A stretch of 63,834 nucleotides of DNA, filler included, from Globobulimina sp. (lineage: Eukaryota), in assembly GCA_003354225.1 (NCBI GenBank). It is 36 parts of 36 records of this genome, joined end to end, with 100 filler letters (N's around TTAATTAATTAA, not from the genome) between each part and the next. Parts side by side here need not be neighbours in the genome. Positions count along the whole stretch, not along the records: positions 17,769 to 19,444 come from PIVH01013252.1; 35 more parts are not named here. One strand, written 5' to 3'. Positions 17,769-19,444 of the stretch are shown here, in pieces. Position 1 is the first letter of the stretch, and the number at the start of each line of letters is the position of its first letter. The position numbers and the translations under genes were made by a program. The notes under the pieces were generated by a model that made no database searches, had not been told where the DNA came from, and saw only the letters and a program-made list of their open reading frames with translations.

Positions 17769-18642
17769 TTACTTTATATACTCTATACAGTTCCTCACTC
17801 CATCGTGGTAAATTAATTTTTCCAAAAGCTCCTTGTTTGTCGAGCTCTAATTTATGTACAATGTCATCCTTTTGAAATTTGGGTGGTATTGCAATATTTT
17901 TGGCGATAATTTTTCTTCGTTTGTTTAGGACTAAATGTAGTACTTCGCCCGCGTTTTCAGTGGTCACACTGTTTGGTGTTCTATTACCGATTGAGCTGTG
18001 TGGTGAGTTATTGTATATGTCAACAGCTTGCTTGACACCATTCCATCCAGAACCGCCACCGGTTACAATTCTGCCAAGTATAATTCTCAACGATCGTATC
18101 AAAGATTCTGCTAACCCAGTTTTTGAGGGGTTGTTGCCAGATGTAAAAATCTGCTTGACATTGTATTGCTTCATCTTATCACGAAATGACCTCCCCATAA
18201 ATTCAACCCCGTGATCAGAAAAAGCTGAGTGAATTTTAAATTTATAGTTTTTTATTATTTTTTCCATACCATTCGCGACATTTTTAGCAGTTAAATTACG
18301 GACTGGAACAACGGTTGCAAGTTTACTCAATGCATCGACTGCAACGAGAGCGTGCGGAAACTGTGATTTTGTTTTCTGTCCTAGAAACCAAATATCAATC
18401 GCGACCATTTGCCCCGGGTATGACACGTTAATCCATTGATTCCAAATCGATGTTCTCGGTCTCGGTACCTGTTTATGTCTGGCATATGCTGGTTGAGTAG
18501 AGAGGTAACGGTCTACATCTGATTGGTTAATTTTAGGATTCTCTCTGTGGGCTTGCAACCAAAGTTTCTTGGCAGAAGTAAAACCTGTCTCTGGATTATA
18601 GTACAATTCGGCAAGCAACTCTTTTTTCTTTTTTGTCAACAT
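17769..18642 (-). CDS. Polinton/Maverick-type retroviral-like (rve, DDE) integrase, 3' partial
   Basis: LYYNPETGFTSAKKLW N-terminus; AIDIW, VAVDALSK, SDHGVEF, LAESLIRSLR; YNNSPHSSIG; KFQKDDIV..FGK...RWSEELYRV. Confidence 0.9.
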
Positions 18643-18678
18643 GATTATTAATGATGGAATTTTGAACAGGTAAGTTAA

Positions 18679-18700
18679 CTTTACCTTATATATAGTAAAG
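18679..18700. promoter_or_regulatory. Candidate bidirectional TATA promoter
   Basis: Palindromic TATATATA (18687-18694) flanked by CTTTAC/GTAAAG inverted repeat, about 45 bp and 42 bp from the two divergent ATGs. Confidence 0.55.
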
Positions 18701-18735
18701 AACAGCGAGGTGTAAACCAATATGTAAATGAGAGC

Positions 18736-19245
18736 ATGGCGGGTGCGTGTCCCGACTCTGTTGAGTCTATTATTATGGTACGCGACTACATTGGGTATAG
18801 ATTAAAATTAGCTGGAATCGATTGGGAATACCAACCCGATTATTTGCTTCCGGGCAGAAAACATTTAATGCTGCGCGAACTGGCATATTCATTTGAATTG
18901 CAATACAAAACTCAACTAGAAGAATTAATCAACAACATGGAATTTTCGTTGAACACTATTCAAGACGAATACCAAAAAATATTAGACTTGTTGCTAGGCA
19001 AAAAGATCACATGGAAGCGAATCGTTTTAATATTTTCTATAACCGGATACTTAGCTTTAGAAAGTATAGTGAGAAATAAGCCATCGAATGTAATTATGTT
19101 CATGGATACATTGTTATCGTTGTATATCAAGAGAGAATTGATTTATTGGGTAATAGAAAATGGTAATTGGGAACATGGGTTAGAAAAATGTTTGCGCCAA
19201 TATTTGAAATCAAATCAGCGGAACAATTGCTGTATCATCATTTAA
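18736..19245 (+). CDS. Bcl-2-family homologue with C-terminal CaaX motif (complete, 169 aa)
   Basis: BH4-like MVRDYIGYRLKLAGIDW; BH3-like LMLRELAYSFELQY; BH1-like LLGKKITWKRIVLIFSITG; BH2-like WVIENGNWE; ends CCIII*. Confidence 0.85.
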   Translation: MAGACPDSVESIIMVRDYIGYRLKLAGIDWEYQPDYLLPGRKHLMLRELAYSFELQYKTQLEELINNMEFSLNTIQDEYQKILDLLLGKKITWKRIVLIFSITGYLALESIVRNKPSNVIMFMDTLLSLYIKRELIYWVIENGNWEHGLEKCLRQYLKSNQRNNCCIII

Positions 19246-19248
19246 ATT

Positions 19249-19444
19249 TTACATAAAATATTTTAACAATTTTCGAAAATTTCGTCTGTCTTCTCTACTT
19301 CTGAGCTCAATGATTGTTTTATCATAGATATTATCAGCTTCGAAAGCTCTTATTTCATATGAATCTTGTTTCTCCAGTTCGTCATATCCCATACACTGTA
19401 CTTCAATTTGATATCCAGACTCGGTTTTACCAACAATCATAGTA
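19249..19444 (-). CDS. C-terminal fragment of an unknown protein, convergent with the Bcl-2 gene
   Basis: Frame open from contig end; stop lies 3 bp from the Bcl-2 stop. Confidence 0.5.

Follow-up and report, generated by a model that had tools for sequence, protein, structure and literature searches.

A Bcl-2-family protein with a conserved candidate CaaX tail in place of a transmembrane anchor, encoded beside an integrase gene on a repeated DNA unit

We analysed a stretch of 63,834 bases (the window) from the assembly GCA_003354225.1, deposited as Globobulimina sp., which consists of 36 unrelated contigs of 1675-1677 bp ordered by length and joined by N44-TTAATTAATTAA-N44 spacers; open reading frames (ORFs) running across these spacers as runs of X are artefacts. 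Our subject is a Bcl-2-family gene on piece 11 of the window, and these 1676 bp are its only genuine genomic context, with a divergently transcribed integrase gene on one side and a convergent ORF on the other (Table 1). The last codons of the Bcl-2 ORF read TGC TGT ATC ATC ATT TAA, i.e. C165-C166-I-I-I-stop, resembling the CaaX box of prenylated proteins. We show the protein being devoid of a hydrophobic tail anchor and its terminal cysteine motif being conserved among relatives, suggesting a lipid anchor at a position at which human Bcl-2 and Bcl-xL carry a hydrophobic one.

The assignment to the Bcl-2 family is supported by sequence and by structure prediction. The protein matches the Pfam profile PF00452 at a score of 46.8 bits, the cut-off being 31.4 (E 4.6e-12), residues 46-145 covering positions 1-100 of the 100 profile positions. 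Among solved structures Bcl-xL and Bcl-2 come closest to it in sequence, Bcl-xL chains matching residues 14-149 with E 1e-12 and the sequence identity to the top structures being 21-26%. A first AlphaFold2 model, built from an alignment of 8 rows, was discarded (predicted local distance difference test, pLDDT, 54), and the model built from 96 rows reached a pLDDT of 90.6 and a predicted template modelling score of 0.86. It contains seven helical elements as assigned by DSSP, i.e. residues 8-25, 41-56, 58-66, 72-87, 93-112, 117-141 and 144-163, of which the model segment 117-141 is read as two canonical helices. The top Foldseek matches listed are Bcl-2, Bcl-xL or chimeras, human Bcl-2 being the best (6qgk; TMq 0.80, TMt 0.91). 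Judged from profile match and model, the ORF encodes a genuine Bcl-2-family protein with the Bcl-2 helical-bundle fold.

With human Bcl-2 and Bcl-xL the protein shares the Pfam family, the fold and equivalents of the Bcl-2 homology (BH) regions BH4, BH3, BH1 and BH2 in the same order, the first helix being the one which we take to be BH4. It differs from them in having CCIII instead of the hydrophobic anchor, a short loop connecting helix 1 and helix 2, a lysine within BH1 and no intron at the BH2 site, and its gene, unlike theirs, adjoins an integrase in a multicopy unit. The BH1/BH2 signature residues W93, W138, W145 and the Arg are present, the consensus Gly being replaced by Lys. In the relatives' alignment the BH1 consensus is GIxWGRIVALF with W93 nearly invariant. 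The window protein reads TWKR here (residues 92-95, window 19009-19020); the close family has the Lys as well, and the Gly is retained by the more distant relatives ending in CTIM or CNYM and by those of the P0019 group, both introduced below.

Analysis of the hydropathy revealed no candidate for a transmembrane tail. The highest 19-residue Kyte-Doolittle window (1.42) falls into helix 5 (residues 96-114) and the last 12 windows are all negative, ranging from -0.41 to -1.74; the protein has no hydrophobic tail anchor. The description given in the initial annotation, i.e. a Bcl-2 homologue without hydrophobic tail ending in a CaaX-type sequence at 19228-19245, was thereby confirmed. As a base rate for such endings, 3 of 37 ORFs of at least 100 amino acids in the window end in Cxxx, the other two being non-canonical (CWAG and CLRR), and the same holds for 6 of 147 Bcl-2 matches from outside the close family.

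The ending is conserved in the close family. A search of 5.8 billion clustered proteins returned four relatives, and their clusters contributed three more (seven in total). The readable tails are CCIII in P0001 and P0003, CCTII in P0002 and CCTIM in P0005, so that all five intact tails, the window protein included, end in CC-[I/T]-I-[I/M] at 73-89% identity, with Ile at a2 in five out of five and either Ile or Met at X. A scan of metagenome contigs yielded a single locus (L001, 1102 bp), which is 89% identical to the window protein over codons 38-169, stops at the same position and is identical to the window over the first ~90 bp past the stop. Both cysteine codons are synonymously changed between the two, TGC TGT in the window versus TGT TGC in L001, and QNNCCIII-stop is also what a contig from a second sample (X2) encodes, its codons likewise being changed synonymously. 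From these comparisons the CCIII tail looks to be under selection. The expectation that homologues keep the terminal cysteine was borne out by the five intact close tails, by the X2 fragment and, at greater distance, by all four members of a cluster ending in CTIM and by a protein ending in CNYM. The initial annotation had also proposed the preceding cysteine as a possible palmitoylation site; this residue is conserved within the close family (5/5) but absent from the CTIM and CNYM relatives, limiting the proposal to the close family. The homology of L001 to the window begins at codon 38 only, the upstream parts (L001 1-616 versus window 18560-18846) being unrelated, which leaves a copy with a truncated 5' end, a rearranged copy and an assembly chimera as readings of L001. 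P0003, a database protein of 178 amino acids, begins within this unrelated upstream part of L001.

Comparison of the window with L001 over 132 codons, counting 13 synonymous and 16 non-synonymous differences, resulted in a ratio of non-synonymous to synonymous substitution rates (dN/dS) of 0.27, showing at the sequence level that the Bcl-2 ORF is under purifying selection. This bears on the possibility that the repeat family carries the gene as cargo which is non-functional and decaying, its tail having been kept only because the copies are young. The unit is indeed multicopy, L001 is homologous from codon 38 only, and several copies are damaged, P0007 being frameshifted in its tail and without the motif, P0004 and P0006 being truncated and one contig of the sample X1 lacking 71 nt within the ORF. 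The dN/dS value, full-length open frames down to 73% identity, the conserved start and stop positions, the confident model of a complete Bcl-2 bundle and the same architecture in relatives of ~32-33% identity all speak against decay, which we hold to be quite improbable as an account of the gene. The X1 contig mentioned skips 71 nt of the ORF (19064-19136) and carries a 7-nt duplication at the stop, its CCIII ending being unchanged, and probably represents a dead copy that suffered a deletion.

In many Bcl-2 genes the BH2 Trp codon is immediately followed by an intron. The missing anchor might be a gene-model artefact, in which case the true protein would extend, across an unrecognised intron or a misassembled stretch, to an exon for a hydrophobic tail anchor. 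In favour of this are the short contig, the fragmented assembly and the many database members of the family that are mis-called across the BH2 intron: of the 75 rows in a first tree (see below), 15 were classed as read-through based on the pattern 'GGW' followed by 'VS...', the latter being the translation of GTAAGT or GTGAGT. In the window ORF, by contrast, the BH2 Trp codon at the canonical site is followed by GAA and not by GT (TGG GAA), and the stretch that comes next, EHGLEKCLRQYL, is in frame, pairs with Bcl-xL helix 8 in the alignment and is helical in the model. The position of the stop is shared by L001, the X2 fragment and four protein relatives. Over the 200 nt past the stop, each of the three forward frames is interrupted by stops, and no hydrophobic stretch of transmembrane length occurs; these nucleotides encode the convergent ORF, which ends 3 nt past the Bcl-2 stop and is conserved in L001. 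A hidden transmembrane exon is unlikely given the lack of a GT after the BH2 Trp, the in-frame helix 8 and the closely adjoining convergent ORF, and we regard an artefact as very improbable. Hydropathy, downstream frames and the stop position in L001 likewise gave no indication of a frameshift concealing a transmembrane tail, a possibility named in the initial annotation.

To more distant relatives the motif can be followed in part. In an exhaustive HMMER search covering 1.84 billion representatives, 168 matches had E <=0.001, and only three of them, all from the close family, reach E <=1e-30; the nearest named relatives are animal Bcl-2 proteins of a bivalve, of Trichinella and Trichuris and of a nemertean, at 28-30% identity. 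Scanning the C-termini of 154 proteins, we found 70 with a hydrophobic tail (hydropathy window >=1.6) and 10 ending in Cxxx, four of them from the close family. The best outgroup match, P0008 (E 1.3e-16, 33% identity), has an Asn-rich linker followed by FCTIM, an ending present in all four members of its 90% cluster, and P0023 ends in CNYM; both lineages are ~32-33% identical to the window protein. P0145, encoded on a contig of 6253 bp, shows a polybasic run followed by CCIS, which is K-Ras-like (Pfam Bcl-2 E 3.6e-15). P0008, P0023 and P0145 all score above the Pfam Bcl-2 threshold. Three further Cxxx endings were set aside, i.e. that of P0106 (CLLS), a vertebrate-type Bcl-xL read through its intron, and those of P0057 (CVDT) and P0089 (CFYF) as chance endings among distant matches. 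In their N-terminal helix the proteins P0019, P0155, P0156, P0160 and P0161 are the most similar ones; all of them are called through 'GW' into 'VS/VK...', i.e. they are BH2-intron read-through calls, and their true tails are for this reason not readable. The query family lacks the BH2 intron, and so do the relatives ending in CTIM or CNYM, the pattern to be expected if the gene was captured in the form of complementary DNA.

Whether these tails go back to a common ancestor was addressed by tree building. In a quick tree of 75 rows, P0023 and the families of the query and of P0008 formed a single clade of eight rows (Shimodaira-Hasegawa-like approximate likelihood ratio test, SH-aLRT, 95), but we do not rely on it because the tail columns were included. 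For a careful tree the sequences were cut after the BH2 Trp, resulting in 45 rows and 145 columns, the rows being hand-picked from the starred 24-row group of the first tree together with a sample of the other matches. The free search recovered two clades and not a single Cxxx clade, the query family grouping with P0021 (97/80) and the P0008 family with P0023 (96/95). In an approximately unbiased (AU) test with tail columns excluded, the arrangement holding the eight Cxxx rows together scored 11.3 log-likelihood units above the free-search tree (p-AU 0.845). A single origin of these tails is not rejected and is the best-scoring arrangement for these sequences, and the AU test alone weakly favours it; as the group was named after the first tree and the branches are long, common ancestry is not proven. 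P0145 is placed elsewhere on a very long branch, so that its CaaX-like tail probably arose independently.

The biochemistry of CaaX prenyltransferases fits the tails. Geranylgeranyltransferase type I (GGTase-I) acts on CaaL/I/M sequences and farnesyltransferase (FTase) on CaaX sequences more generally (PMC11152559), and the CIII of the window protein follows the CaaL/I/M rule with an aliphatic a2 and X being Ile, or Ile or Met across the family. CTII, the exact tail of P0002, was modified to 100% by human and yeast FTase and to 75-81% by yeast and human GGTase-I when placed on the Ydj1 reporter, and CIIM, CIIL and CIIS are prenylated as well (PMC11152559). CIII and CTIM are not among the tetrapeptides in those portions of the main text and supplement of PMC11152559 that were consulted, and their status as substrates is in consequence interpolated.

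Two tails provide models for the adjacent cysteine. Ras/Rho-type tails such as that of yeast Ras2 (CCIIS) share the Cys-Cys-Ile-Ile-X arrangement; in Ras2 the CaaX cysteine is prenylated and the cysteine adjacent to CIIS is normally palmitoylated (PMC11152559). The Ras2 tail is connected to a GTPase via a long hypervariable region, whereas in the window protein a short polar linker is all that separates the tail from helix 8. A close analogy is offered by Ykt6, a SNARE protein without transmembrane domain, the CCAIM tail of which is farnesylated and reversibly palmitoylated, the protein cycling between cytosol and membranes (PMC7696345). In Ykt6 as in the window protein, a member of a normally tail-anchored family has its transmembrane helix replaced by two cysteines, aliphatic residues and Ile or Met; Ykt6 differs in its unrelated fold and function and in that its lipid is shielded by the longin domain.

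Within the Bcl-2 family the initial annotation had recognised no lipid-anchored member, which needs a correction, as one precedent for a CaaX-like tail was found. The African swine fever virus (ASFV) protein A179L, a 'homolog of mammalian Bcl-2' without a transmembrane tail, ends in CNLI, and this tetrapeptide is a substrate of both human enzymes on a yeast reporter, a setting different from the native context (PMC11152559). A179L resembles the window protein in being a Bcl-2 homologue of a mobile genome with a Cxxx C-terminus. It differs in that CNLI is called non-canonical and was tested only out of its context, native prenylation not being reported in the parts of that source consulted (PMC11152559), whereas the window-family tails are canonical (aliphatic a2, X being Ile or Met), contain a second cysteine and are conserved in a clade; A179L was compared by its description only. 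A natively prenylated Bcl-2 homologue is not described in the portions of the literature searched.

We consider the window protein being a Bcl-2 homologue natively prenylated via its CaaX tail as the best explanation, with a probability of roughly 60%; the tails point to prenylation as the most likely modification, joined in the close family by palmitoylation. The principal competing view is that of a soluble Bcl-2 homologue without transmembrane segment, as found among several viral and cellular members lacking a tail anchor, the CCIII of which stays unprenylated in the host and the cysteine pair and hydrophobic triplet of which serve something else, such as palmitoylation alone, a weak hydrophobic patch, metal binding or a disulfide, or merely reflect shared descent. 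Two invariant residues at 73-89% identity are indeed weak evidence if taken alone, but a cysteine exactly four residues from the end is found across lineages of ~32-33% identity (the P0008 cluster, 4/4, and P0023) with a linker changing in both length and sequence, both cysteine codons are changed synonymously, and Ile at a2 together with Ile or Met at X is what prenyltransferases prefer, with CTII as a proven substrate on a reporter (PMC11152559). On balance, we judge a soluble, unprenylated protein to be rather unlikely.

A number of points count against native prenylation; two of them, the extent of helix 8 and the gap in the reporter data for CIII, are also those on which the soluble view draws. 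AlphaFold2 extends helix 8 to residue 163, i.e. two residues short of the cysteine pair. Prenyltransferases require an extended C-terminus, which is difficult to reconcile with a helix reaching that far. The polar, indel-bearing linker sequence suggests that the end of helix 8 frays, and in the last block of the model the mean pLDDT is 58, residues 166-169 being below 50. CIII falls into the gap in the reporter data described above, and CNYM of P0023 departs from the canonical pattern at a1, which is not aliphatic, and at a2, which is aromatic. The careful tree separates the Cxxx lineages into two clades and leaves their common ancestry unproven, and the frameshift in P0007 and the truncations of P0004 and P0006 indicate that some copies are decaying. 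The BH1 Gly is of functional importance in Bcl-2 proteins; its replacement by Lys may alter the BH3-binding groove and renders a classical BH3-groove function uncertain. Finally, we infer lipid attachment from the tail sequence only. The proposal of a CaaX lipid anchor instead of a transmembrane tail is supported by the conservation of the motif and by the search for a hidden exon, and is provisional with regard to the lipid.

Table 1. Features of the Bcl-2 gene and its contig (positions refer to the window)
Feature	Position	Strand	Basis or remark
Contig bearing the Bcl-2 gene	17769..19444	.	Set off by spacers
Stand-alone rve (DDE) integrase, N-terminal 291 amino acids, oriented divergently to the Bcl-2 gene, truncated at the contig end	17770..18642	-	Pfam rve E 7.7e-10
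Divergent intergenic region, 93 bp between the two ATGs	18643..18735	.	Sequence
Bcl-2-family ORF, 169 amino acids, ATG start, one open frame, start conserved	18736..19245	+	Pfam, PDB sequence match, model
Helix 1, residues 8-25, BH4-like (presumed)	18757..18810	+	AlphaFold2; aligns to the N-terminal helix of Bcl-xL
Helix 2, residues 41-56, BH3-region equivalent LRELAYSFELQY	18856..18903	+	Aligns to Bcl-xL LREAGDEFELRY; AlphaFold2
BH1 region, residues 88-107, TWKR in place of consensus WGR	18997..19056	+	Alignment
BH2 region, residues 137-151, YWVIENGNWEHGLE; intron-free at the canonical post-Trp site (TGG GAA)	19144..19188	+	W138 and W145 nearly invariant
Polar Asn-rich linker, residues 157-164	19204..19227	+	Sequence varies; 2-residue indel among relatives
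Cys165, candidate S-palmitoylation site upstream of the CaaX Cys	19228..19230	+	Kept in 5/5 intact family tails
CaaX box C166-I-I-I; Cys166 predicted prenyl acceptor, III = aaX	19231..19242	+	Conservation
Stop codon TAA	19243..19245	+	Same site in L001 and X2 fragment
Convergent ORF, C-terminal 63-65 codons, running off the contig end; ends 3 nt past the Bcl-2 stop	19249..19444	-	ORF call

The neighbouring genes place the Bcl-2 ORF on a repeated unit. The divergent integrase matches retroviral integrase cores in the PDB by sequence. Its full length is about 330 amino acids as judged from its relatives, 10 of the 13 found at E <=1e-5 lying outside the range of 327-335 amino acids (176-362 amino acids). 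At the lengths searched these relatives are stand-alone proteins, no polyprotein being among them, and no chromodomain was detected in the four relatives scanned. Its neighbours in the atlas are unnamed rve clusters of mixed taxa, and in PHROGs it matches generic transposase families only. The two divergent genes are separated by an intergenic region with a TATA-like run at positions 18687-18696 and, next to it, a perfect splice-donor-like CAG/GTAAGT (18667-18675, plus strand) located 60 nt upstream of the ATG of the Bcl-2 ORF; this donor-like sequence could belong to an intron of the 5' untranslated region or be there by chance. The convergent ORF gave a sub-threshold match to SOUL in Pfam (E 0.0021, 18.6 bits versus a cut-off of 27) and no match in PHROGs, and it stays beside the Bcl-2 gene in diverged copies.

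Mapping of contigs from four public runs (X1-X4) onto the contig showed the unit being present in many diverged copies. X3 and X4 gave none, and X1 gave 71 pieces, 21 of them with at least 99% identity, 21 with 95-99%, 18 with 90-95% and 11 with below 90%. The linkage of integrase and Bcl-2 gene is covered by single pieces, two in X1 and one in X2, and other pieces bridge the Bcl-2 gene and the third ORF; in one of the copies bridging integrase and Bcl-2 gene, the intergenic stretch is replaced by 70 other letters with the genes still being adjacent. As the three genes are repeated and have diverged as a unit, this unit looks like a mobile element or an endogenous virus. Searches for relatives in viral contigs, using as queries the Bcl-2 ORF, P0145, P0008, the integrase and the integrase alignment, returned none, and neither did a search of a collection of prokaryotic genome contigs with the Bcl-2 family alignment A1 and the integrase P0163.

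The initial annotation had referred to Polinton-like elements. An rve integrase is a trait of Polintons/Mavericks and is present in the 1676 bp of context, but since a stand-alone rve integrase is the only such trait seen beside the gene, this label is not established. A Bcl-2 domain has been reported for the planarian giant Gypsy-like 'Burro' retrotransposons (PMC6431247), which like the window unit carry a Bcl-2-family domain on an integrase-encoding mobile element. In Burro it is one domain within the huge ORF1 polyprotein, whereas the window unit has a separate small gene divergent from a stand-alone integrase; no reverse transcriptase was seen in the 1.7 kb available for the window unit.

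With respect to the organism, the window has a mean G+C content of 34.2%, and according to a domain scan the long, uninterrupted ORFs, of which most pieces contain one or two, have domains that are commonplace in eukaryotes, among them SET/MYND, PH, WD40 (RBBP4 and coronin type) and DEAD-box helicase domains, a two-pore K+ channel, GT64, an M14 carboxypeptidase and a caspase-family domain. A second copy of any of the three genes of the Bcl-2 contig was not found elsewhere in the 63,834 bases of the window. The caspase-family domain (PF00656, 26.1 bits with a cut-off of 21.4, E 8.1e-6) lies in an ORF of 456 amino acids on a separate contig (7417-8784, minus strand) without a sequence match in the PDB, and by virtue of this domain the assembly holds a caspase-type protease alongside the Bcl-2 homologue. 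Caspase-type proteases have been reported in Foraminifera (PMC10565124, PMC11463336); a foraminiferal Bcl-2 protein is not described in the portions of the literature retrieved for foraminifera and Bcl-2. The accession of L001 belongs, according to its depositors, to an unclassified metagenome associated with the benthic foraminifer Globobulimina (PMC6783311), and the run X2 is labelled as marine metagenome. As hosts of the Bcl-2 gene, a protist and an associated animal both come into consideration, as does a virus infecting one or the other.

In the model which we favour, a functional Bcl-2/Bcl-xL-like helical bundle would have lost the usual C-terminal tail-anchor helix and acquired a CaaX box instead. 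A cytosolic CaaX prenyltransferase would add a farnesyl or geranylgeranyl group to Cys166, Ile or Met at X being suited to either FTase or GGTase-I, followed by removal of -III and methylation of the new C-terminus at the endoplasmic reticulum by Rce1- and ICMT-type enzymes. In the close family Cys165 would then be S-palmitoylated in analogy to yeast Ras2 (CCIIS) and Ykt6 (CCAIM), resulting in a peripheral, potentially reversible anchor by which the Bcl-2 domain would be held at endomembranes or at the plasma membrane instead of being inserted in the manner of tail-anchored proteins. As a speculation guided by the farnesyl group of Ykt6, the BH3 groove might take up the prenyl group whenever the protein is detached from membranes. 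The gene would be the cargo of a multicopy integrase-bearing unit, either a DNA transposon or an endogenous virus, and by analogy with viral Bcl-2 homologues the Bcl-2 cargo would most likely restrain cell death or stress signalling of the host for the element's benefit. A more far-reaching version, i.e. a whole Bcl-2-fold clade having swapped the tail anchor for a prenyl group, in one lineage plus a palmitoyl group, and travelling as cargo of integrase-bearing elements or endogenous viruses in a marine, AT-rich, compact and perhaps non-animal eukaryotic genome, appears unlikely at present.

Multi-domain Bcl-2 proteins are textbook tail-anchored proteins, and both their location at the mitochondrial outer membrane and the endoplasmic reticulum and the route by which they reach it are central to the control of cell death. 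What is new here, as far as can be read from the sequences, is a Bcl-2-family protein with a conserved canonical CaaX tail encoded on an integrase-bearing repeat. If true, a natural CaaX-anchored clade would imply that the Bcl-2 bundle, in its old role or in a new one, operates on other membranes while attached only peripherally and reversibly, and it would represent a natural counterpart to engineered, retargeted Bcl-2 proteins. It would also lend comparative support to the unproven idea that the tail of ASFV A179L is prenylated, and add a further example of an integrating mobile element having acquired a regulator of cell death. Should the host be a foraminifer or another protist, the finding would bear on whether Bcl-2 proteins act outside animals, and the more far-reaching version, if true, would mean Bcl-2-type cell-fate control being exerted by a selfish element through a reversible lipid switch outside Metazoa.

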